DNA of 64,000 nucleotides from Candidatus Parcubacteria bacterium (lineage in GTDB: Bacteria > Patescibacteriota > Minisyncoccia > Phycocordibacterales > JAACPR01): positions 30,680 through 94,679 of the forward strand of contig JAACPR010000001.1 of assembly GCA_009995365.1 (NCBI GenBank), read 5' to 3'. Positions 1 through 37,652 of this stretch are shown piece by piece. A program made the position numbers and the translations under genes. Under the pieces are notes generated by a model, which saw nothing but the letters and a program-made list of their open reading frames with translations, ran no database searches and was not told the origin of the DNA. How positions within the stretch are numbered: the first letter of the stretch is position 1; every line of letters begins with the position of its first letter.

Positions 1-3000
1 GGTTTAAAAAATGTATTCGAAGAATTTTCTTCTATTAAAGATTATTCAGAAAAGAAATTCGAATTAAAACTTGGAAAAATTGTTTTTGACAAACCAAAGC
101 TTTCTGCCAAAGAAGCTCGTCAAAATCACCTTACTTATGAGGTTCCGATGAAAATCAGGGCTACCCTTATAAACAAAACTCTTGGAACAGAAAAAGAGCA
201 AGAAATTTTCCTTGCTGATTTTCCTTTGATGACAGATCATGGGACTTTTCTAATTAACGGTGTTGAAAGAGTTATTGTTCCTCAACTAGCTAGATCTTAT
301 GGTGTCCTGTTCACAAAGCAACTGCTTCGTGGGCGTTTTCAATTTGGTTCAAAAATAATTCCTTCAAGAGGTGCATGGATTGAATTCGAAACAGACGCTG
401 ACGATATTATCTATATTAGAATAGACAGAAACAGAAAATTCCCTGTAACTACTTTCTTGAGAACTCTTGGGGTTGGGACTGACAAAGATATCCTTAATCT
501 ATTTAAAGGTGACGACAAGACAATGCTTGCGATTCAAAAAACTCTAGATAGAGATGCAACAAAAACTGTTGATGAAGCTTATCTTGATGTATACAAAAGA
601 CTAAGATATGGTGATCTTGCCACATTAGAAAATGCAAAAGATTTTGTTGATTCAATTCTTTCAGAAGCAAGATATGACTTATCAGAAGTTGGTAGATTTA
701 AATTCAACAAAAGATTTGGTCTTGGTGTTGATAAAAAATCACTAGAAAAAAGAACAATTGATATTAATGATTTAACAATTATTTTAAAACATGTAATAAG
801 TCTAAATCACACTCCAAATGCAGAAGAAGATGATATTGATCATTTAGGTTCAAGAAGAGTTCGTTTTGTTGGTGAACTATTAGAACAAAAAGTAAGAACT
901 GGTATGGCTCAAATGAAGAGAAATATTCAAAACAGAATGTCTACAATTGATACAGACACATCTCTACCTGCAAACTTTATTGCTCCACGTCCACTTCAAG
1001 CAAGAATCAAAGAGTTCTTCACAACGAACCAACTTTCACAATTCATGCTACAAGAGAACTTGCTGACAGAAACAGAACACCTTAGAACTCTTTCAGCATT
1101 AGGTCCTGGAGGTTTGCAACGTGAACGAGCAGGACTAGAAGTTCGTGACGTTCATCCATCTCACTATGGTCGTGTTTGTCCAATCCAAACACCAGAAGGT
1201 CCAAACATTGGTCTTATTTTGCGTCAATCTATTTTCTCTAGAACAAATAAATACGGAATGATTGAAACTCCTTATTTGAAAGTTGAAAAAGGTAAAGTGA
1301 CTGGAGAGGTTGTTTATATGAATGCTCATGATGAAGAAGGAAATATTATTGCTCATGCTGCTACAAAATTTGATGATAACGACAAATTCGTCGACAAGTA
1401 TGTAAGTGCTAGACAAAATGGAATTCCGGTTATCGTTAAAAATACCGAAGTTGATTATGTTGATGTTGCTCCAAACCAAGCATTCTCAATTGCTACTTCA
1501 ATGATTCCATTCTTGGATCATAATGATGCCAACCGTGCGCTTATGGCTTCTAACATGCAAAAACAAGCCGTTCCTCTATTACAAGCAGAAGCTCCTGTTA
1601 TTGCAACTGGAACTGAATATGATGCTCTACTATCTTCTAATCGTGTTTTAAGAGCTAAAGATTCAGGGGAAGTTCAAGCTGTGGATGCTAGAAAAATTAT
1701 TATAAAAAATTCAAAAGGTAAGTTGGATGAATACGAGCTTGAAAATTACCGTAGAACAAACAACTTTACTTTATTTAACCACCGTCCAATTGTAAATGTT
1801 GGCCAAAAAGTTAAGAAAGGAGAATTAATTGCTGACACATCAACTTCAGACAATGGTCAAATTGCTCTAGGTAAAAACTTACTTGTTGCTTTCATGTCAT
1901 GGAGTGGTTCTAACTACGAAGATGCGATTATTATTTCTGAAAGATTAGTTCGTGATGATACTTTGACTTCAATACATCTAGAAGAAGTTGTTGTTAATGT
2001 TCGCGATACAAAATTAGGTCCAGAAGTTACAACATCTGATATCCCAAATGTTGGTGATACAAAGCTTCGTGATTTAGATGAAGAAGGAATTGTGCGTATT
2101 GGTGCAGAAATTAGACCAGGAGATATTTTGGTTGGTAAAATTACACCAAAAGGTGAATCACAATTAACACCAGAAGAAAGACTACTAAGATCTATTTTTG
2201 GAGACAAGGCTCGTGATGTTAAAGACTCTTCAAAAAGGGCAGAAGGTGGTATGAGAGGTCGTGTAATCGGAGTTAAAGTTTTTTCAAGAGAAAACGGAGA
2301 TAAGCTTGATTCTGGAATAATTAAAAGAATTCACATCGAAGTTGCTCAGTTACGCCCAATTACAGTTGGAGATAAGTTAGCCGGTCGCCATGGTAACAAG
2401 GGTGTTATCTCAAGAGTTCTTCCGGCAGAAGATATGCCGTATAACGAAGACGGAACTCCTGTAGATATTATTCTTACTCCGCTTGGTGTTCCATCTCGTA
2501 TGAACCTTGGTCAAATTCTAGAACTTCACCTTGGACTTGCTGCAAACTCACTAGATTATCAAGCAATCTGTCCTGCTTTCGCTGGTGCAACTGTAGAAGA
2601 AATCAGAGAAGAATTGGCAGAAGCTGGATTTAATACAAACGGTAAAATGCCTCTTTTTGATGGTAGAACCGGTGAACAATTTGAACAAGATATAGCTACA
2701 GGTTATATGTATATGTTGAAACTTCACCACATGGTCGAAGACAAGCTTCACATGAGATCTATTGGTCCATACTCTCTTATTACACAACAACCGCTTGGAG
2801 GTAAAGCTCAAAATGGTGGTCAAAGATTTGGAGAAATGGAAGTCTGGGCGCTACTTGGTCATGGTGTTGCCCATACACTTCGCGAAGTTCTAACTTATAA
2901 ATCAGACGATATAGTTGGTCGTTCAGCTGCCTTTGATTCTATTGTTAAAGGTCAACCTATTTCACAAACTAACACTCCTGCGTCATTTAACGTTCTTGTT

Positions 3001-3078
3001 AGCAATATTAGAGGTCTAGCCTTGGATATTGATATTATAAATGAAGTCGATGAAGATGAAAAAATTAATAATAAATAA
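1..3078 (+). CDS. rpoB: DNA-directed RNA polymerase beta subunit, 5'-partial (frame continues open from base 1)
   Basis: The ORF is open from base 1 in the same frame as 148..3078. Conserved beta-subunit blocks are present: 'GTFLINGVERVIVPQLARSYGV', 'GRHGNKGVISRVLP', 'NIGQILELHLG', 'QRFGEMEVWALLGHG'. Confidence 0.95.
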   Translation, partial: GLKNVFEEFSSIKDYSEKKFELKLGKIVFDKPKLSAKEARQNHLTYEVPMKIRATLINKTLGTEKEQEIFLADFPLMTDHGTFLINGVERVIVPQLARSYGVLFTKQLLRGRFQFGSKIIPSRGAWIEFETDADDIIYIRIDRNRKFPVTTFLRTLGVGTDKDILNLFKGDDKTMLAIQKTLDRDATKTVDEAYLDVYKRLRYGDLATLENAKDFVDSILSEARYDLSEVGRFKFNKRFGLGVDKKSLEKRTIDINDLTIILKHVISLNHTPNAEEDDIDHLGSRRVRFVGELLEQKVRTGMAQMKRNIQNRMSTIDTDTSLPANFIAPRPLQARIKEFFTTNQLSQFMLQENLLTETEHLRTLSALGPGGLQRERAGLEVRDVHPSHYGRVCPIQTPEGPNIGLILRQSIFSRTNKYGMIETPYLKVEKGKVTGEVVYMNAHDEEGNIIAHAATKFDDNDKFVDKYVSARQNGIPVIVKNTEVDYVDVAPNQAFSIATSMIPFLDHNDANRALMASNMQKQAVPLLQAEAPVIATGTEYDALLSSNRVLRAKDSGEVQAVDARKIIIKNSKGKLDEYELENYRRTNNFTLFNHRPIVNVGQKVKKGELIADTSTSDNGQIALGKNLLVAFMSWSGSNYEDAIIISERLVRDDTLTSIHLEEVVVNVRDTKLGPEVTTSDIPNVGDTKLRDLDEEGIVRIGAEIRPGDILVGKITPKGESQLTPEERLLRSIFGDKARDVKDSSKRAEGGMRGRVIGVKVFSRENGDKLDSGIIKRIHIEVAQLRPITVGDKLAGRHGNKGVISRVLPAEDMPYNEDGTPVDIILTPLGVPSRMNLGQILELHLGLAANSLDYQAICPAFAGATVEEIREELAEAGFNTNGKMPLFDGRTGEQFEQDIATGYMYMLKLHHMVEDKLHMRSIGPYSLITQQPLGGKAQNGGQRFGEMEVWALLGHGVAHTLREVLTYKSDDIVGRSAAFDSIVKGQPISQTNTPASFNVLVSNIRGLALDIDIINEVDEDEKINNK

Positions 3079-3088
3079 TCAAACAATC

Positions 3089-6000
3089 ATGAGAAGAAAA
3101 CAAAAAGAAGTAAAAATTGATAAAATTTTCTTGAGATTAGCATCTCCAGAAAGAATTTTAGAGTGGTCACATGGGGAAGTTACAAGACCAGAAACAGTCA
3201 ATTATAGAACTCAACGTTCTGAAAAAAATGGTTTGTTTGATGAAAGAATCTTCGGTCCAGAAAAAGACTACGAATGTTATTGTGGAAAATACAAAGGAAT
3301 TCGTTACAAAGGAATTACTTGTGAAAAGTGTGGAGTTGAAGTAACTCGTGCAATTGTTCGCCGTGATAGAATGGGGCATATTGAACTTGCTTCACCTGTA
3401 TCTCACATTTGGTTTTTGCGTTCTATGCCATCTAGAATTTCATTAATTCTAGGAATGACATCGTCTGATGTTGAAAAAGTTATTTATTTCGCTGGCTACC
3501 TTATTACAAAAGTGGATGAAGATGAAAAGAAGAGAATTCTTTCTGATCTTGATTCTGAACTAAAAACAAAATCAAAAACTGCGCAAGATGAAAAAACAAA
3601 AAATCATCTTAAAGATCTTTACCAAGATACAAAAAGTGAAATAGACAGCATCGTCCAAGGAAAAGTAATTGATGAAGTCCAATATCATAAATACTCTATG
3701 AAATATGGCTCACTTTTTGAAGCTGAAATCGGTGCTGAAGCAGTTTATGAAATTTTCAAAAATCTAAAACTTGAAGAGCTTAAAGCTAACTTGGAAAAAG
3801 ATCTTGAAAAAGCAACATCAGTAACAAGAGACAAACTAAATAAAAGATTAAGTTTGGTTAAATCAATGATTCGATCAAACATTAGACCAGAGTGGATGTT
3901 TTTGAAATATATTCCAATTATTCCTCCTGCTATTCGTCCGATGGTTGCGCTTGATGGTGGAAGACAAGCTACTTCTGATGTTAACGATCTTTATCGTCGT
4001 GTAATTAACAGAAATAACCGTCTGAAAAAACTTAAAAATATCGGTGCACCTGATGTTATTTTGAGAAATGAAAAGAGAATTCTACAAGAAGCTGTAGATG
4101 CTTTGATTGATAATTCAATTAGACACAATTCAAATTCAGGGATGATGAGTGCAGCTCAAAAAAGACCATTAAAATCAATTGCTGATTCACTAAAAGGGAA
4201 AAGAGGTATTTTTAGAGGAAACCTTCTTGGTAAGCGTGTTGATTATTCTGGACGTTCTGTAATTGTTATTGGTCCTACACTAAAACTAAATCAGTGTGGT
4301 CTTCCAAAACATATGGCGCTTGAACTTTTCAAACCATTTGTGATATCTGAGCTTTTGAAAAAAGAATTAGCCTTCAATATTAGAGGTGCTGGTCGCTTGA
4401 TTGACGATGGAGCTCCAGAAGTTTGGGAAATTTTAGAAGAAGTAATTAGAGATAAGTACGTTCTACTAAACCGTGCCCCTACTTTGCACCGTCTTGGTAT
4501 CCAAGCTTTCAAACCGGTTTTGATCGAAGGTAAAGCTATCCAAGTTCACCCACTTGTGTGTACTGCTTTCAATGCTGACTTCGACGGTGACCAAATGGCT
4601 GTTCATGTACCATTATCTGTAGTTTCTCAATATGAAGCTCGTGAAATTATGGCAGCTGACAAGAACGTATTGAAACCAGGTTCTGGTGAGCCTGTCGTCG
4701 CAGCTAAATTGCTAGATATTCTATTGGGATGTTTCTGGGTAACAAAAATGATCAAAGGCGAAAAAGGTGAAGGTATGATATTCCCAGGACCAAACACTGC
4801 TATGACTGCCCGTGATTACAGTCTTCTTTCTCTAAGAGCAAAAATAATAATCAAGAGTAAAGCAGGAACAAAATATGAATCAGAAAATGGTCAAATAGAA
4901 ACAACTGTTGGAAGAATTATGTTCAACTCAATTCTGCCTGATGATTATCCTTATGTTAATGACGAAATCAACAAAAAGAAAATGTCTGAAATTGTTGATG
5001 ATTTAATTGCGCGTTACGGTATTAGTGGTATTCCAAAAATTCTTGATGATATTAAGGAATTCGGTTTCAAATATGCTACAAAATCAGGTATAACATGGGC
5101 TATTGATGACTTGGTTATTCCAGTAGAGAAAAAACCAATTATTGATGCTGCAACAGAAGAGGTTAAACAAGTTGTAAGACAGTTTAACGATGGTCTTCTT
5201 TCAAATATGGAGAAGAAAAGAAAACTTACAACAATTTGGCATGAAGCTAAAAATAAAATTGAAGCGTTAATTCCTGGAACTTTAGATGAAAATTCTCCAG
5301 TTTATGATATGTGGAAATCGGGAGCCAGAGGTTCTCTTGGACAAATTACTAACATGGCAGGTATGAAAGGTCTTATTGTTAACTCAAAAGGTGAAGAAAT
5401 TGAAACCCCAGTTCTATCATCTTCAAAAGAAGGATTCAGTCCTATCGAATACTTCACATCAACTCACGGTTCTAGAAAAGGTCTTACCGACACTGCTCTA
5501 AACACTGCTAAAGCCGGTTACCTAACTAGAAGACTCTTTGACGTTGCCCAAGATGTAATTGTTAATGAACATGACTGTGGTACAAAAAATTCAATTCTAA
5601 TCAAACGTGATACAGGTGATTCAGGTATTGAAGTTCCTATCTCAAAGAAAATTAAAGGTAGAGTTCTTGCTAAAGAAGTTAAAGCAGGAGACAAAACTTA
5701 CAAAAAAGGTCATCTTATAAGTAAATTAGATGCACTTGATATTGAAAACAGTGACCTGAATGAAATAGAAGTTAGATCGCCGCTTACTTGTGAATCTGGT
5801 AAAGGAGTTTGTGCTAGTTGTTATGGTTCAGACCTTGGTAAAGATGAAATGGTTGATCTAGGTGAAGCTATTGGTACAATTGCCGCACAAGCTATTGGTG
5901 AACCTGGTACACAGTTAACTATGAGAACTTTCCATGCTGGAGGTACTGCTGTTGTTGGTGGAGACATTACACAAGGTCTTCCTCGTGTTGAAGAGGTTTT

Positions 6001-6768: not shown

Positions 6769-8472
6769 ATGTCGCAAGATAATGTATCAAAAATAAAAGA
6801 GCGACTAGGAATCAAAGAAGTTGTCGAGACATATATCAAACTAGAAAAAGCGGGAAGTAACTTTAAAGGTAGATGTCCGTTCCACAATGAAAAAACACCA
6901 TCTTTCTTTGTTTCTCCAGATCGAGATTCATACTATTGTTTTGGTTGTGGTGCAAAAGGCGACATATTCACTTTTGTTCAAGAATACGAAGGAATTGATT
7001 TTTTAAATTCTTTGAAATTATTGGCTGATAGAGCTGGTATAAAATTAGATAAAATTAATCACAAGCAGAATTCGCAAGAAAATCTCCTGAAAGAAATCCT
7101 CGAAGAAGCAACGATTTTTTTTGAGGATGCATTCAAAAAAAATTCCGAGGTAATGATTTATCTTAAAAAAAGAGGATTGAATGAAGACACTATCAAAGAA
7201 TGGCGAATTGGTTTTGCACCTAATGGTTGGAGTAATCTATCAGACCACCTAAAGAAAAAAGGTTACAAAGAGTCAGATATTGAGAAAGCGGGTCTGATCA
7301 AAAAAGGTCCAAAAGAAAGTTATTACGACAGATTTAGAAGTAGGATAATTTTTCCGATACATAATTCAAACGGAGACATTATCGCTTTTACCGGAAGAAT
7401 TTTTGGAGCAGAAGAAGATACCGCAAAGTATTTAAATAGTCCTGAAACTGAACTATTTAAGAAATCTGAAATACTTTTTGCTTTTGATAAAGCTAAAGGT
7501 TCAATAAGAAAAAATGACTTTGCTATTTTAGTTGAAGGGCAAATGGATACGATTATGTGTCATCAGGCCGGATATAAGAATGCTATCGCATCGTCCGGTA
7601 CAGCCATAACAGAAACCCAACTAAGAAATATCAATAGGTTATCCAAAAATTTGGTCATTGCTTATGATTCTGATAGTGCTGGTTTCGCTGCTTCAGAAAA
7701 AGCTTGGAAAGTTGCATTGTCAATTGGAATGGATGTTAAAATTTCGCCGATTGAAGAAGGTCTAGACCCTGCAGACTTGATCCAAAAAGATCCAAAAAAA
7801 TGGAAAGAGACTATCAAAAAATCAGAGCACATCATAGATGTCTTTATAAGAAAAATATCAAATTCAGAAACCGATAAACGAAAAATAATTCAAAGAGTTA
7901 TAAAAGACATTGTTCCACACTTGAAATACATATCTTCTAGTATGGATAGAGATCACTTTGTAAAAAAAGTCGCCGAAGCTTTTGACATATCAATAGAAGC
8001 TATAAACGAAGAGGTAGCTTCTTATGAAGACGATAACGGTGAATCTTTAAATTTGAATAATTTATCAAAATCTTCTCTAGTTGAAAGGGAAAAATTTGAT
8101 GAATTAGCATTAGAGAAAAGGATATTTGGCGTGATGTATGCTCTTGAGAAAAAAGACGAAGAGGAATTCAAGATGATGCAGGAGGGGATAATAAATATTG
8201 TAGGTCAAGAGGGATATGATAAAATTTTAGAAAGTATAAATGAGGAACTAGAAGAAATTATATTTGCCGTTGAAAATTCTTTTGATGAAAAGAATATTAA
8301 AATAGAATCCAAAGAATTATTAAAAAATTTAAAAATAAAAAAATTAAATAACGATAGGAAAAAAATATTATTAGAGCTTAAAAAAGCCGAACAACAAAAA
8401 GATGAAGAGTTAGAGAATAATTTATTATTAGAAATCAATAAAATTTCAAAAAAAATACAAGAAATAAATTAA
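6769..8472 (+). CDS. dnaG: DNA primase
   Basis: CHC2 zinc finger '[30 protein letters not shown]'; TOPRIM '[18 protein letters not shown]', '[10 protein letters not shown]'. Confidence 0.9.
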
Positions 8473-8479
8473 ATTTTAT

Positions 8480-9661
8480 ATGCCAAAAAAGAAAGCAAGC
8501 AAAAAACAAAATAAAACAACAAAAAAAGTAGCAAACACTACTAACAAAAAAAACATAAATAAAACTAAAAAAACTCCTGCTAAAAAAAATAAAAAAGAGG
8601 ATTTAAAAATTGCTGCTGCGAAAAAAATAATCAATAAAGGTAAAGAAAGAGGTTATATTACCTATGATGAAATTTTAAAAGCATTTCCAAATATTGAATC
8701 TGATGTTAAATTTCTAACTTCTCTTTATGAAGATTTAGAAAATTCTGGTGTAGATGTGTTGGAGAGTGGTGGACTACTAGAAACCATAGAAGAAAAAGAC
8801 GGTAAATTTGTCTATGGTAAAAATGCTTCACAATATGATTCAATCCAAATGTATCTAAAGGAGATTGGTCAATATTCTCTAATCATGGCTCATGAAGAAA
8901 AAGAGTTAGCTAAAAGGATTGAACAGGGCGATGAAGAAGCAAAAAACCTTCTAGCTCGCGCCAACCTTCGTCTAGTTGTATCTATTGCTAAAAAATATGT
9001 AGGTAGAAGCCCTGATTTGACCTTGCTCGACCTTATCCAAGAAGGGAACCTGGGTCTCTTTAAAGCTGTTGATAAATTTGATTGGACAAAAGGTTATAAA
9101 TTTTCAACTTATGCCACATGGTGGATTAGGCAGGCAATCACTCGTGCTTTGGCTGATCAATCTAGAACAATTCGTGTCCCTGTTCATATGGTTGAAACGA
9201 TTGCAAAATATAAGCAAGTCTATCGTCGTCTATCACAAGACCTTGGGCGTGAACCAATGCCAGAAGAAATTTCAGTGGAAATGGATTTGGATATTGAAAA
9301 AGTGTATACAATTGAAAAAATTGACCAAAATACTGTTTCTCTAGAAAGCCCTGTCGGAGACGATGGTGATGAAAAATCTACCCTTAGTGACTTTTTAGCT
9401 GATGATAAAATTTCTTCACCTGATCAAGATGCCTCACATCGAATTTTGAAAGATCAAGTCGAAGCTATTCTGAGTGATTTATCAGAAAAAGAAAGAAAAA
9501 TTTTAGAATTACGACATGGACTTGGGGATGGAATTCAACATACCCTAGAAGAAGTTGGGAAAAAGTTCGGTGTTACTAGAGAGAGAATTCGTCAAATCGA
9601 AGCCAAAGCACATGAAAAAATTAGACAACATAACGATTCTGACAAATTAAAGAATTATTAG
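8480..9661 (+). CDS. rpoD: RNA polymerase primary sigma factor (sigma-70 family) with Lys-rich low-complexity N-terminus
   Basis: Region 2 '[55 protein letters not shown]'; region 4 '[23 protein letters not shown]'. Directly follows dnaG. Confidence 0.9.
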
Positions 9662-26136: not shown

Positions 26137-26631
26137 ATGAATCTAGAAAAATACTATCTGACCCTACTGTTTGAAACTGTAAATTTAGTTTTTTATCGAG
26201 CTAAAATTATGCTTTCTGAAAAGTATGAAGACATAAGAACTACAGCTTTATTAAGTTTTACTCACCAGTCGCTTGCTGGTCAACCGCCAATCATCGTAAT
26301 GATGCTTGGTGAAACCATTGAAGATTCTGATAAAGTTAGCTCGTGGAGTGTTAATTCTCGAGAAAAAGCAGCGCGTCTGTGTCAAAATACAGATCATATC
26401 AGTGCTTGGCAAAGTCGCGATTTCGATAAAAAGAAATACGGCGGTGCCGTTAAAACAAGCACTGGTGAAATTCTATCCATGTCAGGACTTCCTGAATTTG
26501 GTGACGAAGCATGTTGCTTGGTCACCCTACTTTTGATGGACCGGATGGAGCTTGAAGAAGCAGAAAGGATTGTAGAGATAAGTGGTAACGATTTGTTCCA
26601 CGAACTCTACGATCGCTGCAAGATGCTTTGA
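26137..26631 (+). CDS. DUF336/GlcG-HbpS-like protein (putative haem/corrinoid-binding); an alternative ATG start at 26209 gives ~140 aa, which fits the family length
   Basis: 'YGGAVKTSTGEILSMSGLPEFGDEACCLV' resembles the GGxPI...GAIGVSG...DE motif of DUF336. GC content is elevated relative to flanks. Confidence 0.4.
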   Translation: MNLEKYYLTLLFETVNLVFYRAKIMLSEKYEDIRTTALLSFTHQSLAGQPPIIVMMLGETIEDSDKVSSWSVNSREKAARLCQNTDHISAWQSRDFDKKKYGGAVKTSTGEILSMSGLPEFGDEACCLVTLLLMDRMELEEAERIVEISGNDLFHELYDRCKML

Positions 26632-26695: not shown

Positions 26696-26731
26696 AAAGA
26701 AAAAAGTCGAGGTTTAAAATCCCTCGACTTG
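26696..26731 (-). terminator. rho-independent terminator (minus strand) for the Nudix gene; the hairpin includes the last codons
   Basis: On minus strand: 'GTCGAGGgattttaaaCCTCGAC' followed by TTTTTT. Confidence 0.6.
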
Positions 26732-27217
26732 ATTAATATCAACATCTAAAAGCTCTTTTTGTCTGTTGAAGATGATCTCTGCTTTTATTTTTTGTCCTTC
26801 GAGAATTCTAGGTAACCACAGAAGATCAGATTTAATTATCTGTCTTTTAGGTAAACGATTTATTGAATACCATTTACCTTTTTTCATTTCGCGTGTTTCA
26901 CTAGGAGTGCCGATTACATTACTTGAAATAAAAACATGGAGATTTACTCTCAATCTTTCTTCAGAAAAAAATACTAGATCAATTTCAGCAACTTTAGTTA
27001 AAAAATTCTTAACAATTTTAGCTGGTTTTGCCTCCTCGTTGAATTCACGGACCGTGGCTTCTTCAAAGGTTTCATTAAGCTTACATAATCCACCATATCC
27101 ATTTAACTTTCCGAGCATATCAACAGCTTCTTTGACATTAGTATCTGTCTTTTTCTCTGCCAAAAGGATTTTCCCATCCTTAACAACAAAGACTACGGTT
27201 TGAACTTTAGTTTTCAT
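26714..27217 (-). CDS. Nudix (MutT-family) hydrolase
   Basis: Nudix box 'GKLNGYGGLCKLNETFEEATVREFNEEA' (G-x5-E-x7-REF-x-EE-x pattern). Confidence 0.7.
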   Translation of the reverse strand: MKTKVQTVVFVVKDGKILLAEKKTDTNVKEAVDMLGKLNGYGGLCKLNETFEEATVREFNEEAKPAKIVKNFLTKVAEIDLVFFSEERLRVNLHVFISSNVIGTPSETREMKKGKWYSINRLPKRQIIKSDLLWLPRILEGQKIKAEIIFNRQKELLDVDINQVEGF

Positions 27218-29706: not shown

Positions 29707-29907
29707 ATGAAACTTAAACCTCAACATTATGATATTTTAGGTTTAGTCGTATTTCTTTTTATAGTTGGTATTGCATTTTTTGGAATCTATAACGAGCTTC
29801 AGTTACCTCAATGGGTTTTTGTTGTTCTCCTACTGATTGGAGTAGGTGGATTACTTATTGATGGCTCTATTGTTTATAATTATTTTATTAAGCGTGATAA
29901 AAAATAA
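29707..29907 (+). CDS. small 2-TM membrane protein
   Basis: 66 aa, two hydrophobic helices; its stop overlaps the ATG of the downstream Nudix gene (TAATG). Confidence 0.4.
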   Translation: MKLKPQHYDILGLVVFLFIVGIAFFGIYNELQLPQWVFVVLLLIGVGGLLIDGSIVYNYFIKRDKK

Positions 29908-30326
29908 TGTCTGCTAGTGAACCAAAACTTTTTTATATTGGGGTTAAGGCTTTAATTAAAAGAGATGGAAAAATTTTAGTTTTAAAAAGGGCGAAAAAAG
30001 ATGAGATTTATTGGGACTTACCCGGCGGGAGAATCAACAATAACGAAACACAAATAGAAGCATTGAAGAGGGAATTGGTCGAAGAGATTCCTTCAATACA
30101 AGAAATCGAAATTAAAAAAATAGTTAGTTCATGTAATTTTAATAAAGACCTAATAGGCGGCGGACTATTTTTCCTGTTTTATGATGTTAGTGCAAATACG
30201 GTACAAGTTTTATTAGGAAATGAACACTCTCAACATAAATGGATTGATCAAAAAGATCTTGATTCTATAAAAAAAGATATGTTTAGTGGTTATTATGATG
30301 CAATAAAAGCTAGTTTATTAAAATAA
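29907..30326 (+). CDS. Nudix hydrolase
   Basis: 'LPGGRINNNETQIEALKRELVEEIP' (Nudix box with terminal G->P). Confidence 0.65.
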   Translation: MSASEPKLFYIGVKALIKRDGKILVLKRAKKDEIYWDLPGGRINNNETQIEALKRELVEEIPSIQEIEIKKIVSSCNFNKDLIGGGLFFLFYDVSANTVQVLLGNEHSQHKWIDQKDLDSIKKDMFSGYYDAIKASLLK

Positions 30327-31761: not shown

Positions 31762-32313
31762 ATGGACTCAAACAAAAAATCGGGAATTTTAAAGTGGGCG
31801 CTTATTTTAAGTATTGTTATTGTTATTAATCTATTTTTTAATGTTGCACTGAGTTATATTTATAATTCTCCTGACTACTCTGATTTCTGCCCCGTAGAAA
31901 GAATTAATAAGGTTATTCAAAACGAACAAGAGTGTTTAAATAAAGGCGGTTCATGGTCTGAATACACAAAACCTAGAGAATTAAGTGCGCCAGACCAAGA
32001 TTTGGAAAAAATTTCAGGTTTTTGTGATCAAGAATTTGAATGTCGTATGGCTTATCAAAGCGCTATAGAAAATTACGATAGAAATGTCTTCATTTCTTTA
32101 ATTGCTTTGGGTGTGATAACTTTTGTCGTTTCTCTGATTCTAAAATCAAACATTGTAGTTTCAACTGCATTATCATTAGCAGCCGTTTTGAACTTTGTAA
32201 TTGCATCGATTAGATATTGGTCATCAGCACATGAACTTATCAAATTAATAATTCTCGCTATTGCCCTCGTCGCTCTCATTTATATCGCTTACAAAAAATT
32301 CAGCGATCAGTAA
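31762..32313 (+). CDS. hypothetical membrane protein (N-terminal TM, Cys-containing periplasmic segment, 2-3 C-terminal TM helices)
   Basis: Hydrophobic segments only; no recognisable motif. Confidence 0.4.
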   Translation: MDSNKKSGILKWALILSIVIVINLFFNVALSYIYNSPDYSDFCPVERINKVIQNEQECLNKGGSWSEYTKPRELSAPDQDLEKISGFCDQEFECRMAYQSAIENYDRNVFISLIALGVITFVVSLILKSNIVVSTALSLAAVLNFVIASIRYWSSAHELIKLIILAIALVALIYIAYKKFSDQ

Positions 32314-32363: not shown

Positions 32364-35225
32364 ATGCAAGAAAACAACAAAGAATACAATCATAAGAATA
32401 TAGAGCAGAAGTGGCAAAAAGCGTGGCAAGAAAATAAAACATTCAAAACTCCTGATTCGATTGAAGGGAAAGATAATTTCTACACTCTTGTAGAGTTTCC
32501 TTATCCGTCTGGCGATTTACATGTTGGTCATTGGTATGCTTTTGCTGTAACTGATATTTATGCAAAATACCAGAGGTTAATGGGCAAGAATGTTCTTTTT
32601 CCAATTGGTTTTGACGCTTTTGGTTTGCCGGCCGAGAATGCTGCCATAAAAAACAAAGTAAATCCGGATGATTGGACTAGGCAAAATATTGAATCAATGA
32701 AAAAGCAAATGGTCGCTATGGGAAATTCGTTTGATTGGGATAGAATGATTGCTACGACCGATCCGCGATATTACAAATGGACTCAGTGGATTTTTACCCA
32801 AATGTTCGAGCGAGGACTTGCTTATAAAAAGAAAGCGACGGTTAATTGGGATCCAGTTGATAAAACTGTTTTAGCTAATGAACAAGTCATGCCTGACGGA
32901 ACTGCCGAGCGCTCTGGTGCAGTAGTTGAAAAGAAAGAAATCGACCAGTGGTTTCTAAAAATTACTGATTATGCCGAGCGACTTTATGATGATTTAGATG
33001 AGCTTGATTGGCCTAGTCAGATTAAGGATCAGCAGAAAAATTGGATTGGCAAGTCCTATGGTGCAGAATTAAATTTTGATATAAAAGATTCTGCCGACAA
33101 TTCTTTTGAAGAGAAAATAAAAGTTTTTACAACTCGACCTGACACACTATTCGGAGCGACTTATGTTGTATTGGCTCCTGAAAATGAATTAATCAATACA
33201 CTTTCAGATAAAATTTCTAATATAAACGAAGTCAAAAAATACATCGAAACAGCTCGAGCAAAGACTGAAATTGAAAGGACAAAAATAGAAAAAGAAAAAA
33301 CCGGTATTAAATTAGATGGCGTTTCTGCAATTAATCCGGCAACCAAAGAAGAAATTCCGATTTTCGTTGCTGACTATGTTCTAGGTGGATACGGAACAGG
33401 CTCTGTGATGGCAGTTCCTGCACATGATGAGCGTGATTATGCTTTTGCTAAAAAGTTTGATTTACCAATTAAATATGTAATCGAGCCTATTACTGGAGAA
33501 CCACAAGAAGATGAAGAGAAAAGACAAAGCATTGTAGCCCTAGTTGAAAACCCAGAAAATGGGGAAATTTTAAGTATTAATTGGGGTGAAAAATTAGGAG
33601 GAAACTTATTAATTGGAGGCGGATTAAAAGAAGGAGAAGATCCTATAGAATGTGCAAAAAGAGAAATTATTGAAGAGACTGGTTATAAAAACTTTGAATA
33701 TATTGGCAAGACCGAGTTAATTCACCATCACTACAGAGCTCATTCTAAAAATGTAAATCGTGAGATCGATGCAATTGGTCTTTATTTTAGGTTAACTAAT
33801 TTAGAAAAAATTGAACAAAATCTAGAAGATGATGAGAAAGATAAATTTAAAGTTGAATTTATTTCAAAAGAAAAAGCAGAAAAAAATATCAAAGATCCAT
33901 TACATAATTATATCTTTAATAAATTTATTAATGAAAAAATTTATACTGATAATGGATTTTTAACTAATTCAGGGGAGTTCAACGGCTTAACTTCACAAGA
34001 AGCCAAAGAGAAAATTACAGAATTTGTTAGTGGGGAAATGAAAACAACTTTTAAATTGCGTGATTGGTCAGTAGGAAGACAGAGGTATTGGGGAACTCCT
34101 GTTCCAATCGTTTATGATCCAGAAGGAAAACCACATCCAATTCCAAAAGAGAATTTACCATGGACACTACCGGCGGATGTTGATTATACTCCAACAGGTG
34201 AACCACCGTTAGCTAAATCAAAAGAATTAAAAGAAAGAACAGAAGAAATATTTGGAAAAGGGTGGACTCCAGAGGTAGAGACTCTTGATACTTTTATCGA
34301 TTCTTCTTGGTATTTCTTGAGATATATTGATTCAAATAATTCAGACACTATTGCCGACAAGGATAAACTATCACAATGGATACCAGTTGATTTTTATTCC
34401 GGCGGAGCAGAGCATACAACTCTCCACTTGTTGTATTCTAGGTTCTTTCACAAATTTCTATCAGACATAGGTATCGTCGACACAAAGGAACCATATAAAA
34501 ATAGATTGAACCGCGGTCTTATTTCAGGGACTGACGGAAATAAAATGTCAAAATCAAAAGGTAATGTTATTAACCCCGATGAAATTGTAGAGCGTCTTGG
34601 TTCTGATACTGTTCGTCTTTACCTTGCTTTTATTGGTCCATACAACGAGCCAGGTTCATATCCATGGGATCCTAATGGTGTTGTGGGTGTTCGTCGTTTT
34701 CTAGAGAAAATATGGCGTCTTGCACAAAACAGGGTTATAGAAAATCCATCAGAAAAATCTTCTGATAAAACTATACTTGAAATTAATAAGCTTATTAAAA
34801 AAGCGCACGAAGATTATCCTGAACTAAAATTTAACACCGTCGTTGCCTCTATGATGAGTTTTCTAAATGCTACAGAAAAAGAAGAAATTTCAAAAGAAGA
34901 TTTTATAAAGTTCTTGATTGTCTTATCTCCAGCAGCTCCTCATATCTCAGAAGAATTATTTAATATAATTTCAAACACCCAAGAAACCATTTTTGATCAA
35001 AAAATTCCTGACTTTGATGAAGCAATTTTGCAAAATCAAGAAAAAATTATTGGAATTCAAATCAATGGTAAAGTCCGTGCAGAAATCGCAGTCTCAGAAT
35101 CAGAATCAGAAGAAATTTTGAAAGAAAAAATCCTTGAAATGCCAGAGATAAAGAAGTGGACAGAAGATAAAGAAATCAGAAAATTCATCTATATTCCAGG
35201 CAGAATAATAAGTATTGTCTTATAA
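32364..35225 (+). CDS. leuS: leucyl-tRNA synthetase carrying an inserted Nudix hydrolase domain (~aa 376-525)
   Basis: 'PYPSGDLHVGHWYAF' (HIGH), editing-domain blocks 'TTRPDTLFGATYVVLAPE' and 'GTGSVMAVPAHDERDYAFA', 'NSGEFNGL', 'LRDWSVGRQRYWGTPVP', 'GNKMSKSKGN' (KMSKS). Inserted segment contains the Nudix box 'GGGLKEGEDPIECAKREIIEETGY'. Confidence 0.92.
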   Translation: MQENNKEYNHKNIEQKWQKAWQENKTFKTPDSIEGKDNFYTLVEFPYPSGDLHVGHWYAFAVTDIYAKYQRLMGKNVLFPIGFDAFGLPAENAAIKNKVNPDDWTRQNIESMKKQMVAMGNSFDWDRMIATTDPRYYKWTQWIFTQMFERGLAYKKKATVNWDPVDKTVLANEQVMPDGTAERSGAVVEKKEIDQWFLKITDYAERLYDDLDELDWPSQIKDQQKNWIGKSYGAELNFDIKDSADNSFEEKIKVFTTRPDTLFGATYVVLAPENELINTLSDKISNINEVKKYIETARAKTEIERTKIEKEKTGIKLDGVSAINPATKEEIPIFVADYVLGGYGTGSVMAVPAHDERDYAFAKKFDLPIKYVIEPITGEPQEDEEKRQSIVALVENPENGEILSINWGEKLGGNLLIGGGLKEGEDPIECAKREIIEETGYKNFEYIGKTELIHHHYRAHSKNVNREIDAIGLYFRLTNLEKIEQNLEDDEKDKFKVEFISKEKAEKNIKDPLHNYIFNKFINEKIYTDNGFLTNSGEFNGLTSQEAKEKITEFVSGEMKTTFKLRDWSVGRQRYWGTPVPIVYDPEGKPHPIPKENLPWTLPADVDYTPTGEPPLAKSKELKERTEEIFGKGWTPEVETLDTFIDSSWYFLRYIDSNNSDTIADKDKLSQWIPVDFYSGGAEHTTLHLLYSRFFHKFLSDIGIVDTKEPYKNRLNRGLISGTDGNKMSKSKGNVINPDEIVERLGSDTVRLYLAFIGPYNEPGSYPWDPNGVVGVRRFLEKIWRLAQNRVIENPSEKSSDKTILEINKLIKKAHEDYPELKFNTVVASMMSFLNATEKEEISKEDFIKFLIVLSPAAPHISEELFNIISNTQETIFDQKIPDFDEAILQNQEKIIGIQINGKVRAEIAVSESESEEILKEKILEMPEIKKWTEDKEIRKFIYIPGRIISIVL

Positions 35226-35376: not shown

Positions 35377-36405
35377 ATGATTAAACTAAGTTTTAAACCA
35401 AAAGAAATAGTAAAAAAAATACTATCTGAATTGCCAGAGAGGTCGCGTGATGTTCTTGTCAAAAGATACGGACTTGGAAAAGAGACCGCTAAAATGACTT
35501 TAGAAGCTATAGGTAAAGAATACTCAATTACCAGAGAAAGAGTTCGTCAAATCGAAGAACATGGACTTAACCTTATTAGAAAATCAGAAGTATATAAAGA
35601 TAAAGAACCTGTTTTTGAAGAATTAAAGGGCGTGATTGATGATCTTGGCGTTATAATATCAGAAGAAGAACTATTGGATAATATTTCAAAAGCAGATGGT
35701 GTTAGAAATGCCATCCACTTCCTACTTGTCGTAGGAGACTTTTTCCTAAAACACAAAGAAGACGAGCATTTTACACACAGATGGTCTGTTGATAAAGATC
35801 TAGCTTTAACTGTAGAAGAATCTATTAAGAAACTTTATGAAAATCTTAATCATGAAGATATTATTTCAGAACCTGAATTAATAAAAAACTTTTTGTTTGA
35901 ATTAAAAGATGTTTCAGAAAAATACAAAAATGAAGAAATTATAAAAAGATGGTTAAAACTTTCAAAGAAAATTTCTAGTAATCCTCTTGGTGAATGGGGA
36001 AAATCAGAATCACCAAATATTAATGTAAAAGGAATTCGTGATTATGCCTTCTTGGTAATAAGAAGACACGGCTCTCCAATTCATTTCCGTGAAGTTGCCG
36101 AAGAAATTCAAAAACTTTTCAACAAAAAAGCACATGTTGCCACAACACATAATGAACTTATAAAAGATAGTCGTTTTGTTCTTGTTGGTCGTGGTTTGTA
36201 TGCTTTGACTGATTGGGGTTATTCAAATGGTGTTGTCAGAGACGTCATCAAGGAACTTTTAGTGAAAGAAGGGCCGCTAACTAGAGAAGAAATCATAGAA
36301 AAAGTTTTGAAAGAAAGACATGTAAAAGAAAATACAGTTCTTGTAAATTTACAAAACAGTAAACTTTTCCAAAAAACACCTGACAATAAATATACACTAG
36401 CTTAA
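35377..36405 (+). CDS. sigma-70 region-4-like HTH domain protein (putative transcriptional regulator) with uncharacterised C-terminal domain
   Basis: 'SRDVLVKRYGLGKETAKMTLEAIGKEYSITRERVRQIEEHGLNLIRK' matches the sigma-70 region 4 / LuxR-like HTH pattern; the remaining ~270 aa are unrecognised. Confidence 0.55.
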   Translation: MIKLSFKPKEIVKKILSELPERSRDVLVKRYGLGKETAKMTLEAIGKEYSITRERVRQIEEHGLNLIRKSEVYKDKEPVFEELKGVIDDLGVIISEEELLDNISKADGVRNAIHFLLVVGDFFLKHKEDEHFTHRWSVDKDLALTVEESIKKLYENLNHEDIISEPELIKNFLFELKDVSEKYKNEEIIKRWLKLSKKISSNPLGEWGKSESPNINVKGIRDYAFLVIRRHGSPIHFREVAEEIQKLFNKKAHVATTHNELIKDSRFVLVGRGLYALTDWGYSNGVVRDVIKELLVKEGPLTREEIIEKVLKERHVKENTVLVNLQNSKLFQKTPDNKYTLA

Positions 36406-36434: not shown

Positions 36435-37652
36435 ATGGAAACAATTGATCTATCAAATTCTGTTATTGATTTTCTAGTATTGGCTTTGCCGATAGTAATA
36501 CCTATTTTTCTTGCCATATTATTATTTGATATATGGGTAAGTTTTGCCAGAGAAAGATTTCTATCTTCTCAGGAATATTCTCTCTTAAAAATAATGCCCC
36601 CAACTGATGTTTTAAAGACTCCTCTTGCTATGGAACTTTTTATAAATGGTCTTCATCAGACTTTCGGTGAGGCAACTTTAAAAGATGTGTATTGGAAAGG
36701 GTCGGTTAGGCCAACTTTTTCTCTAGAAATGACTTCAAACGAAGGTCATGTAAATTTTTATTTATGGACTAGAAAATCGATAGTTGGTTTTATTGAATCG
36801 CAAATTTATGCTCAGTATCCTGGAATAGAAATTATTGAAGCAGATGATTATGCTACGAAGTTTGAATTTGATGAATCAAAACACAAGATGTGGGCATTAG
36901 AATATAATTTTACAGAAGATAACTCTGTTCCAATAAAAACCTATGTTGATTATGGTTTAGATAAGCCAACCAAAGATGAGGAAATGGTTGATCCTATTAC
37001 TCCAATGCTTGAATTTCTTGGCTCAGCCAGAGAAGGAGAAAGAATATGGTTTCAAATCTTAATCAAAGCTCACAAAAAAGAAGATAAGAAACCTGGAACT
37101 TTATTTGGAAAAACTGACTTATGGGAAGAAAACCACAAGGCACAGATTAAAAAAATTCAAGAGCTTAACCAAGAAGAGGATTCTGAGGGTAACAAAAGAA
37201 CTTTGCCACCTAGCGAAATTCAAAAAGAGAGAATCCAAGCGATTGAACGCTCTCAAGGTAAACTAGCATTTGATGTTGGCATTAGATCAATTTATATTTC
37301 AGATAAAGATAGTTTTAACCCTGTCAATATTGGTGGATTGATAGGTGCTTTTAAGCAATACAGTTCTAAAAATCTTAATGGTTTTAAACCAGGTAATAAA
37401 ACAAAAATTGACCACTGGTGGCAAGATCCTTTTGGTAAGAATATAAAATTAATAGAAAAACAATTTCTAGATCATTATAGAGAAAGAGCTTATTTTTATA
37501 AAGAATTTATGGGTAAAAAAAGACCGGTTTTAGTAATGAACGCCGAAGAATTAGCGACAATTTATCACTTCCCAGGTTCTGTTGCGATGACTCCTAGTTT
37601 AGAAAGAGTTCAATCTAGAAAAAGCAACGCTCCGTCAGACTTACCAATATAG
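36435..37652 (+). CDS. hypothetical membrane-anchored protein
   Basis: N-terminal TM helix 'VIDFLVLALPIVIPIFLAILLF'; no recognised motif. Confidence 0.4.
   Translation: METIDLSNSVIDFLVLALPIVIPIFLAILLFDIWVSFARERFLSSQEYSLLKIMPPTDVLKTPLAMELFINGLHQTFGEATLKDVYWKGSVRPTFSLEMTSNEGHVNFYLWTRKSIVGFIESQIYAQYPGIEIIEADDYATKFEFDESKHKMWALEYNFTEDNSVPIKTYVDYGLDKPTKDEEMVDPITPMLEFLGSAREGERIWFQILIKAHKKEDKKPGTLFGKTDLWEENHKAQIKKIQELNQEEDSEGNKRTLPPSEIQKERIQAIERSQGKLAFDVGIRSIYISDKDSFNPVNIGGLIGAFKQYSSKNLNGFKPGNKTKIDHWWQDPFGKNIKLIEKQFLDHYRERAYFYKEFMGKKRPVLVMNAEELATIYHFPGSVAMTPSLERVQSRKSNAPSDLPI

Follow-up and report, generated by a model that had tools for sequence, protein, structure and literature searches.

A Nudix hydrolase domain within the CP1 editing domain of a patescibacterial leucyl-tRNA synthetase

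The leucyl-tRNA synthetase (LeuRS) encoded in a 64,000-nucleotide stretch of contig JAACPR010000001.1 from Candidatus Parcubacteria bacterium (the whole stretch is referred to here as the window) contains a complete Nudix hydrolase domain inserted in frame within its CP1 editing domain, an arrangement that we regard as virtually certain. The protein is a housekeeping-type LeuRS of a Patescibacteria (Paceibacterota-like) bacterium which has acquired a self-contained Nudix domain of ~150 amino acids, and its synthetase core, editing site and Nudix catalytic motif are all intact. The insert is a member of a small Nudix subfamily whose representatives occur chiefly within LeuRS, and is apparently active, as judged from conservation of its catalytic residues.

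Anatomy of the LeuRS and its Nudix insert

The window LeuRS matches the NCBIfam model for the bacterial enzyme (TIGR00396, leuS_bact) with 961.9 bits against a cut-off of 548.4 bits, possesses both the HIGH and KMSKS signatures, and is matched in Pfam by tRNA-synt_1, the editing domain PF13603, Anticodon_1 and NUDIX. The match to PF13603 (211 bits) falls in two stretches which are split around the Nudix insert. The T-rich motif and the universal aspartate, the features by which CP1 domains are recognised, are both present; the T-rich block TTRPDTLFGATYVVLAPE occupies residues 256-273, and GTGSVMAVPAHDERD occupies residues 344-358. DLPIKYVIEP (residues 366-375) lies directly N-terminal of the insert, while IYTDNGFLTNSGEFNGL (residues 526-542), LRDWSVGRQRYWG (residues 565-577) and NSGEFNGL are also present. 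An earlier reading of the window, made from the sequence alone, had proposed the Nudix domain inside LeuRS and quoted LeuRS motifs in its support, and every one of these motifs lies where that reading placed it in the 953-residue translation. Among 120 LeuRS homologues, G55 and H56 of the HIGH motif and M728, S729 and K730 of the KMSKS loop are invariant, and G531, L533, S536 and F539 in the closing part of CP1 are nearly so. The editing residues T256, T257, R258, D260, T261 and D358 are invariant in all 120 homologues, and the Nudix module therefore supplements, rather than substitutes for, the normal editing site.

The limits of the insert were mapped by comparison with the Thermus thermophilus LeuRS (1H3N), with which phmmer aligned residues 7-382 of the window protein to residues 3-370 and residues 524-737 to residues 374-594. 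Approximately 140 residues of the query face about 3 residues in 1H3N, and the extra segment therefore corresponds to residues 376-525. In close relatives which lack the Nudix domain the insertion loop is 0-12 residues long. The sequence-only reading had located the insert at positions 33490-33940 of the window; the placement was right, although the boundaries were off by one base, the insert being 33489-33938. Within this segment the Pfam NUDIX model (PF00293) matches residues 387-507 with an E-value of 4.2e-11 and a score of 43.4 bits, relative to a gathering cut-off of 21.1 bits. The Nudix box, which lies inside residues 418-441, reads G419-GLKEG-E425-DPIECAK-R433-E434-I-I-E437-E438-T-G440-Y441, and the pattern G419-x5-E425-x7-R433-E434-I-x-E437-E438-x-G440-Y441 follows the consensus GX5EX7REUXEEXGU without deviation, in agreement with the Nudix box claimed in the sequence-only reading.

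Structural modelling led to the same picture. The AlphaFold2 model of the whole LeuRS, based on a 120-sequence alignment, has a mean predicted local distance difference test score (pLDDT) of 92.6 and a predicted template modelling score (pTM) of 0.86; within it the insert has pLDDT values of 94-97, and the sequence REIIEE lies on a helix formed by residues 427-439. When the insert was modelled by itself, the pLDDT was 96.1 and the pTM was 0.90. The structure models contain an alpha/beta/alpha sandwich with a loop-helix-loop Nudix box, as is characteristic of the Nudix fold, and Foldseek returned 527 matches in the PDB at E<=1e-3, the best 50 listed being all Nudix-family structures. Based on the model scores and the Foldseek matches, CP1 is intact and the Nudix domain forms a separate and complete lobe in the CP1 loop. 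Searching the PDB with the sequence of the insert gave weak matches only, the best of which had an E-value of 0.007, and these were limited to the Nudix box.

The G+C content falls to 0.26-0.30 across the insert (positions 33550-34150), as opposed to 0.35-0.40 in the flanking LeuRS sequence, and this stretch is heavy in A-rich lysine, glutamate and asparagine codons. The low G+C content of the insert is compatible with later acquisition or with weaker constraint. An intein was considered and rejected, as the junctions (P375/I376 and E524-K525/I526) have neither a Cys or Ser at the start, nor a His-Asn pair at the end, nor a Cys, Ser or Thr at the +1 position. A mobile element was likewise rejected, as the flanks of the insert have A-rich low-complexity repeats only and no target-site repeats.

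Of the 120 top-ranking full-length homologues of LeuRS, 107 have the insert, and residue conservation was counted in these 107. In the Nudix box, G419, E434 and E438 are kept in all 107, E437 in 104, R433 and G440 in 102 each, and E425 in 100. Outside the box, K462 is kept in 106, W499 in 104, and W407 and E491 in 99 each, and the X-loop has a pair of aromatic residues (Tyr or Phe at position 456 in 101 of the 107 and Phe or Tyr at position 457 in 98). Near-invariance of both the catalytic and the family-specific residues indicates purifying selection on an active site and not on a scaffold. The window insert is itself the sole member of the set with Phe at position 499 (F499, positions 33858-33860).

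Distribution, exchange and detached copies of the Nudix cassette

When one genome from each GTDB species was scanned with the insert alignment as the query, at least 481 confirmed loci were identified, and in 79 of the 80 best of these the N-terminal core, CP1, the Nudix domain, the remainder of CP1 and the C-terminus are in a single reading frame. By record title the hosts include Patescibacteria (Saccharibacteria, Paceibacterota, Parcubacteria, Giovannonibacteria and Minisyncoccia), as well as many metagenome-assembled genomes (MAGs) from the gut labelled Bacilli, Tenericutes, Mycoplasmatota or Bacillota, with a few titles judged untrustworthy. The nearest named relatives of the Nudix-bearing LeuRSs are Paceibacterota, Kaiserbacteria and Parcubacteria, and on this basis the organism of the window is assigned to the Patescibacteria. 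A LeuRS identical to that of the window (P0267) occurs in the JGI collection, in metagenome 3300007986 on contig Ga0100380_10000129 (88,754 bp). An assembly chimera was rejected based on this identical protein, the presence of the insert in 107 of the 120 homologues and the in-frame architecture of the best loci.

A HMMER search with the 150-residue insert against 1.84 billion representative proteins gave 256 matches at E<=1e-3, the best 150 of which were classified. Seventy-two of these are LeuRSs, either full-length or fragments with the synthetase core, 26 consist of CP1 and Nudix only, and 52 are without a LeuRS part; the Nudix domain is thus joined to a LeuRS CP1 in 98 of the best 150. 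Two insertion sites recur. Site B, which is the site used in the window and lies after position ~150 of the CP1 profile, accounts for 78 cases, and site A, located past the catalytic core but ahead of CP1, accounts for 12. Eleven proteins contain more than one Nudix domain, either two or three, and in multi-Nudix LeuRSs (P0124, P0125, P0134, P0137, P0140, P0141, P0143, P0148, P0149 and P0184) the copies lie both before and after CP1. Most Nudix copies have a canonical box, while a second copy found repeatedly at site A bears E-to-Q and R-to-A substitutions which give the variant box G-x5-Q-x7-A-E-U-x-E-E-x-G-Y. Other domains have entered the same region. A Pfam scan found an alpha/beta serine-hydrolase domain (PF06821/PF00561) at site A beside the Nudix domain in the LeuRS P0151, and precomputed annotation lists the same domain in the LeuRSs P0301, P0309 and P0361 and endonuclease-like PF04480/PF18741 domains in the LeuRS P0385. 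The regions flanking CP1 seem to be a hot spot at which hydrolases in general are inserted.

Identity to the window protein was computed once for the LeuRS body and once for the insert. The closest bodies (P0269-P0271) are 78-79% identical to that of the window, yet their inserts, designated type II, are only 33-36% identical, whereas P0268 has values of 73% for the body and 75% for the insert. The next closest bodies (P0273-P0276; 68-70% identity) have no insert. Some LeuRSs with a type I insert, such as P0278 and P0280, are ~55% identical overall and have whole-insert identities of 66-70%. Across the set, body and insert identity give r = -0.27 (n = 106). It follows that the module has been acquired, lost or swapped time and again at a single hot spot.

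The CP1-Nudix pair also occurs apart from LeuRS. Free-standing proteins of ~270-320 amino acids consist of a trimmed CP1 followed by Nudix and then by the closing CP1 strand, and BLASTP gives 58-60% identity between their Nudix domains and the window insert. As read from the sequences, the T-rich motif of this mini-CP1 has diverged and the universal Asp is retained. One such gene, encoding P0003 (287 aa; locus L001, positions 8001-8864), is located in a complete 874,869-bp genome (CP066684.1) annotated as Aenigmatarchaeota, with a topoisomerase gene on one side, a Laminin_G gene on the other and fibrillarin nearby. A second, encoding P0002 (286 aa; JGI 3300050046), is directly upstream of a gene for an 804-aa LeuRS without Nudix and downstream of another Nudix gene. 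A third copy, at ~2700-3680 of locus L025, is in a MAG labelled Paceibacterota; its open reading frame (ORF; 2604-3800) has in-frame TGA codons at conserved Trp positions ('IPIW' and 'VEW'), and genetic code 4, in which TGA encodes Trp, is therefore probable in spite of the label. We know of no described free-standing paralogue of the LeuRS CP1. Like the trans-editing factors AlaX, YbaK/ProXp, ThrRS-ed and DTD, these three proteins are homologues of editing domains encoded apart from or beside the synthetase, but they differ in originating from the LeuRS CP1, in their diverged T-rich motif and in always being fused to Nudix.

Members of the subfamily are also found by themselves or in other hosts. 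P0010, a 154-aa stand-alone Nudix protein which is 54% identical to the insert, is encoded (locus L084, positions 711-1175) 5 nt upstream of the ValRS gene (1180-3462) and downstream of tsaD. Embedded copies occur in IleRS (P0258), ValRS (P0211), ProRS (P0250), ArgRS (P0180), polynucleotide phosphorylase (PNPase; P0222) and a protein with GNAT and leucyl-aminopeptidase parts (P0266). The IleRS host has a histidine-phosphatase domain in addition to Nudix. Mycobacterial MutT1 similarly consists of Nudix and histidine phosphatase, and its Nudix domain was one of the closer structural matches to the insert; both domains are embedded in an aminoacyl-tRNA synthetase (aaRS) in P0258, however, and the window LeuRS has Nudix only.

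Possible functions of the Nudix domain

The insert does not fall within any of the curated Nudix families with which it was compared. RppH (PRK00714) ranks first among the NCBIfam models and was rejected as an equivalog with 23.9 bits against a cut-off of 116, as was YtkD (TIGR02705), which is also among the top-ranked families, with 20.6 bits against 154.4. Scores for the 8-oxo-dGTP diphosphatase MutT (TIGR00586; 15.8 bits against 97.9) and the ADP-ribose pyrophosphatase YffH/AdpP (TIGR00052; 19.3 bits against 79.55) likewise led to their rejection, and those for the NudE, NudI and dihydroneopterin triphosphatase models are far under the cut-offs. The X-loop proline of ADP-ribose pyrophosphatases (ADPRases) was not found in the insert, where residues 15-17 after the box are His, Tyr and Arg. 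Searches with the insert yielded only generic Nudix families in PHROGs and only a marginal match in PADLOC-DB (PDC-S07; 14.5 bits, E-value of 0.005), which covers the Nudix box.

The nearest characterised folds are those of enzymes acting on diadenosine polyphosphates (ApnA), PP-InsP or capped RNA, and in Foldseek the ApnA hydrolase and RppH structures have template modelling (TM) scores of 0.65-0.79 versus ~0.55 for the T. thermophilus ADPRase structures. The closest group comprises the Aquifex Ap4A hydrolase (3I7U), T. thermophilus Ndx1 (1VC8), E. coli RppH (4S2Y), Mycobacterium tuberculosis Rv2985 and M. smegmatis MutT1, yeast DDP1 and an uncharacterised Enterococcus faecalis Nudix protein (2AZW). 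The insert differs from this ApnA/RppH/DIPP group in that it has at most 24% identity to it, is embedded in an aaRS and has a signature of its own (W407, K462, E491 and W499). A tyrosine in the X-loop ~17 positions downstream of the Nudix box correlates with ApnA hydrolases (Dunn et al. 1999, summarised in PMC5389931). Y457 of the window protein is 16 residues after Y441, though the X-loop Tyr of ApnA hydrolases is a correlate of the family and not a defining test. The domain family is acidic, with a median isoelectric point (pI) of 5.5 and a pI <7 in 84% of its members, which agrees more readily with a small-molecule substrate than with an RNA-binding enzyme working autonomously.

The aminoacyl-adenylate is the precursor from which aaRSs form Ap4A and similar compounds, and these are degraded by Nudix enzymes. 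Enzymes for damage control frequently occur as fusions with the enzyme which generates the damaged product. Our tentative proposal is that the Nudix lobe, as an active hydrolase dependent on Mg2+, would act in cis to clear by-products of the synthetase. Enzyme-bound leucyl-adenylate (Leu-AMP) would donate AMP to phosphate nucleophiles, giving rise to pyrophosphate-linked adenine compounds such as Ap4A, Ap3A and Ap4N from ATP, ADP and nucleoside triphosphates (NTPs), and possibly to App- or Ap4-capped RNA ends. The tethered Nudix domain would cleave compounds of the ApnN type to mononucleotides, through which scarce nucleotides would be recycled and build-up of a damage metabolite or alarmone would be avoided in organisms with minimal metabolism. 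Our confidence that ApnN by-products derived from the adenylate are cleared in cis, whether free or as RNA caps, is less than even, and Ap4A-type substrates are our best guess, based on the nearest characterised folds and the conserved aromatic pair in the X-loop. Consistent with the proposal is the link of the subfamily with synthetases, as seen in the attachment of 98 of the best 150 members to CP1, the presence of up to three copies per LeuRS and the stand-alone copies beside aaRS genes; moreover, the IleRS, ValRS and ProRS hosts all form an aminoacyl-adenylate (aa-AMP). In cells, Ap4A originates chiefly from aaRSs, and Nudix enzymes provide one of the main routes for its disposal (restated in PMC13598233). 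Several points weigh against the proposal. The occurrence of close relatives without the insert means that it is dispensable for aminoacylation, and ArgRS and PNPase also host the subfamily, yet are without classic Ap4A synthesis. LeuRS, furthermore, is only a moderate producer of Ap4A.

A possible, if somewhat unlikely, alternative is that the domain is a housecleaning passenger, a generic pool sanitiser or metabolite pyrophosphatase for oxidised NTPs, ADP-ribose or nucleoside diphosphate sugars which is unrelated to leucylation and which, in tiny genomes, rides in a permissive loop of an essential and constitutively expressed protein. The dispensable and dynamic nature of the insert agrees with this, given that the closest LeuRSs carry a different subtype or none and that body and insert identity give the negative r noted above, as do the unrelated inserts which the loop region accepts (the alpha/beta hydrolase and PF04480/PF18741), the presence of the subfamily in PNPase and the GNAT-aminopeptidase protein, the pairing of Nudix with histidine phosphatase in P0258 as in the nucleotide sanitiser MutT1, and the acidity of the domain. 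A passenger would not, however, be expected to show such a bias in its hosts, most of the identified hosts other than LeuRS being aaRSs too, nor to recur at each of two CP1-flanking sites, with as many as three copies. In the free-standing genes CP1 and Nudix stay joined, an argument for the pair as the functional unit, and the MutT and ADPRase scores are well short of those family cut-offs.

Unlikely, in our estimation, is that CP1 and Nudix together make up an acceptor-end repair unit in which Nudix would act on the tRNA itself and not on free nucleotides, removing either App- or Ap4- caps put on the tRNA 5' phosphate by the synthetase's own adenylate or pyrophosphate-type blocks at the 3' CCA. 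Two forms of action on RNA ends were weighed separately. In the first, which we hold to be quite unlikely, the domain would be a hydrolase of tRNA 5' ends or RNA caps which, like RppH or NUDT12, strips App- (Ap2N), Ap4N- or NAD-type caps or a 5' triphosphate from bound tRNALeu or other RNAs, and this would amount to acceptor-end editing on the 5' side. The nearest folds and the weak matches to hidden Markov models include RppH/YtkD and decapping effectors, Nudix is placed on CP1, which handles the acceptor end, and the hosts LeuRS, IleRS, ValRS, ProRS, ArgRS and PNPase all bind RNA ends. In human cells, full-length tRNALeu and tRNALys occur with an Ap2G cap, whose source is largely unknown and which the Nudix decapper NUDT12 removes (PMC13598233, September 2026). 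This report makes the tRNA-end reading worth testing, although it concerns human cells and is no evidence on these bacteria. Set against a 5'-end function are the RppH equivalog cut-off, which the insert is far from reaching, and the acidity of the domain family, in contrast to RppH, which is a basic, RNA-binding protein. Furthermore, bacterial tRNAs normally have a 5' monophosphate after cleavage by RNase P.

In the second form, the domain would de-block the 3' end of tRNA by removing a pyrophosphate- or nucleotide-type block at A76, such as the 3'-pyrophosphorylation of CCA by toxSAS, while CP1 holds the 3' end, and the whole would serve as a built-in antidote in a conflict system. CP1 is the module which binds the 3' end, and the free-standing proteins do keep CP1 together with Nudix; gain, loss and swapping of the cassette are typical of conflict-related functions, other hydrolases (the alpha/beta esterase, and the histidine phosphatase in IleRS) lie beside CP1, and PNPase also requires a free 3' end. 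Some Nudix enzymes, in addition, cleave the 3'-diphosphate of (p)ppGpp. We nevertheless consider this form improbable. The insert has no specific match to a defence model, the PADLOC match being marginal, and cleavage by Nudix would leave a 3'-monophosphate, so that the end would stay blocked without subsequent action of a phosphatase. Neither the window nor the inspected loci showed a toxSAS context, and the idea is entirely inferential.

The sequence-only reading had suggested, besides hydrolysis of Ap4A or Ap3A and sanitising of the nucleotide pool, that the domain might provide additional proofreading by hydrolysing misactivated adenylates, which here would be non-cognate aminoacyl-adenylates (Nva-AMP or Ile-AMP) cleaved at a pre-transfer editing site. 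Location of Nudix in the editing lobe is in keeping with the suggestion, as is the fact that class Ia editing synthetases (LeuRS, IleRS and ValRS) are the main hosts. Since the canonical post-transfer editing residues of CP1 are all kept, however, there is no gap to fill, and the ProRS, ArgRS and PNPase hosts do not fit. An aa-AMP is a nucleoside monophosphate in acyl-phosphate mixed-anhydride linkage and not a nucleoside diphosphate linked to another moiety; it falls outside the known chemistry of Nudix enzymes, for which its hydrolysis is therefore chemically unlikely. Taken together, we consider such a role highly improbable. Hardly credible at all is that the insert is a non-catalytic structural or tRNA-binding decoration, a chimera or an intein-like selfish element, for although some second copies in multi-Nudix LeuRSs have the E-to-Q and R-to-A changes in the box and the G+C content dips within the insert, the catalytic residues of the site-B copy are kept almost without exception, the in-frame architecture recurs in hundreds of independent assemblies and in the identical JGI protein, and neither intein junction residues nor flanking repeats other than A-rich low-complexity ones are present.

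Gene context, known relatives and significance

Table 1. Positions in the window of leuS and of the parts of its product
Feature	Position	Strand	Residues or basis
leuS, complete bacterial-type leucyl-tRNA synthetase gene carrying the insert	32364..35225	+	953 aa plus stop
HIGH signature HVGH, class I catalytic core	32520..32531	+	residues 53-56; motif located in translation
CP1 editing domain, N-terminal part	33030..33488	+	residues ~223-375; TTRPDT 256-261, AHDERD with D358
Inserted Nudix hydrolase domain, alpha/beta/alpha lobe in CP1 surface loop	33489..33938	+	residues 376-525
Nudix box, catalytic metal-binding helix 427-439	33618..33686	+	sequence and AlphaFold2 model
X-loop segment with aromatic pair and K462, candidate substrate-specificity residues	33729..33749	+	conservation in 107 sequences
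CP1 editing domain, C-terminal part	33939..34043	+	residues 526-~560: IYTDNGFLTNSGEFNGL plus helix; closes CP1 fold
KMSKS loop	34542..34556	+	residues 727-731
Anticodon-binding domain	34779..35117	+	residues 806-918; Pfam PF08264, E-value 2.1e-13

Two stand-alone Nudix genes, at 26717-27217 on the minus strand (30.5 bits) and at 29907-30323 on the plus strand (46.7 bits), lie at most 7 kb upstream of leuS, such that there are three Nudix domains within 9 kb. Both genes had been pointed out in the sequence-only reading and are real, but a relation to the insert was not borne out, as by BLASTP neither is a close paralogue of the insert. Donation of the insert by either gene was rejected, one having similarity in the Nudix box only (E-value of 2e-4 over 66 aa) and the other none. 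An ORF at 26766-27203 on the plus strand overlaps the first of the two genes on the opposite strand and is probably spurious. Just downstream of leuS, 35377-36405 encodes a 342-aa protein with sigma-70 region 4 and a HARE-HTH domain. Genes at 26137-26631, 31762-32313 and 36435-37652 had no Pfam match, and other genes in the window are bacterial, among them those for UvrA, UvrC, Ddl, YchF and the sigma-70 region 4 protein.

LeuRSs of known structure from T. thermophilus (1H3N) and E. coli (4AQ7 and 4ARC) are of the same common bacterial type with a CP1 editing domain. The window protein differs from 1H3N in having a 150-aa Nudix domain with a catalytic motif where the T. thermophilus enzyme has ~3 residues, and in relatives CP1 is flanked by two or three Nudix domains or by an alpha/beta hydrolase. 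IleRS with a GNAT N-acetyltransferase (NCBIfam NF040702, ileS_w_GNAT) is likewise a class Ia synthetase with an extra catalytic domain which is recognised in annotation, but there both the added domain and the host are different, and no curated model or publication was found for the LeuRS-Nudix combination. No description of an aaRS-Nudix fusion was found in the full-text literature, a body of text which leaves most subscription journals outside its coverage, and a review of the Nudix clan from 2017 makes no mention of tRNA or synthetases (PMC5389931); both are consistent with the view, expressed in the sequence-only reading, that the fusion is undescribed. Automated annotation nonetheless already lists PF00293 on hundreds of entries of this architecture, under names such as 'leucyl-tRNA synthetase', 'class I tRNA ligase family protein' and 'NUDIX domain-containing protein', and therefore the architecture is undescribed rather than unseen, and apparently uninterpreted. 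LeuRS and the Nudix fold are both textbook subjects, while their combination is new and would surprise a synthetase specialist.

Editing by aaRSs has been studied for decades as the hydrolysis of wrong amino acids, and a second hydrolase of different chemistry, a pyrophosphatase, within the LeuRS editing lobe would provide translation, at its first step, with a new layer of quality control. Should Ap4A or another ApnN compound be the substrate, the fusion would be genetic evidence in the long-standing debate over whether Ap4A is an alarmone or a damage metabolite, in that the producer in these minimal cells would be furnished with its own disposal unit. If the substrate is instead a tRNA end, the domain would represent a new class of tRNA repair. 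Were acceptor-end repair to prove true, it would be a second kind of proofreading by aaRSs, aimed at the ends of nucleic acids and not at the amino acid, and the free-standing mini-CP1 and Nudix proteins, from DPANN archaea and bacteria, would become the first factors acting in trans to have arisen from the LeuRS CP1. The pattern is limited to genome-reduced, host-dependent lineages, namely Patescibacteria, reduced Bacilli/Mycoplasmatota of the gut and one DPANN archaeon, and this restriction points to a need specific to their lifestyle.

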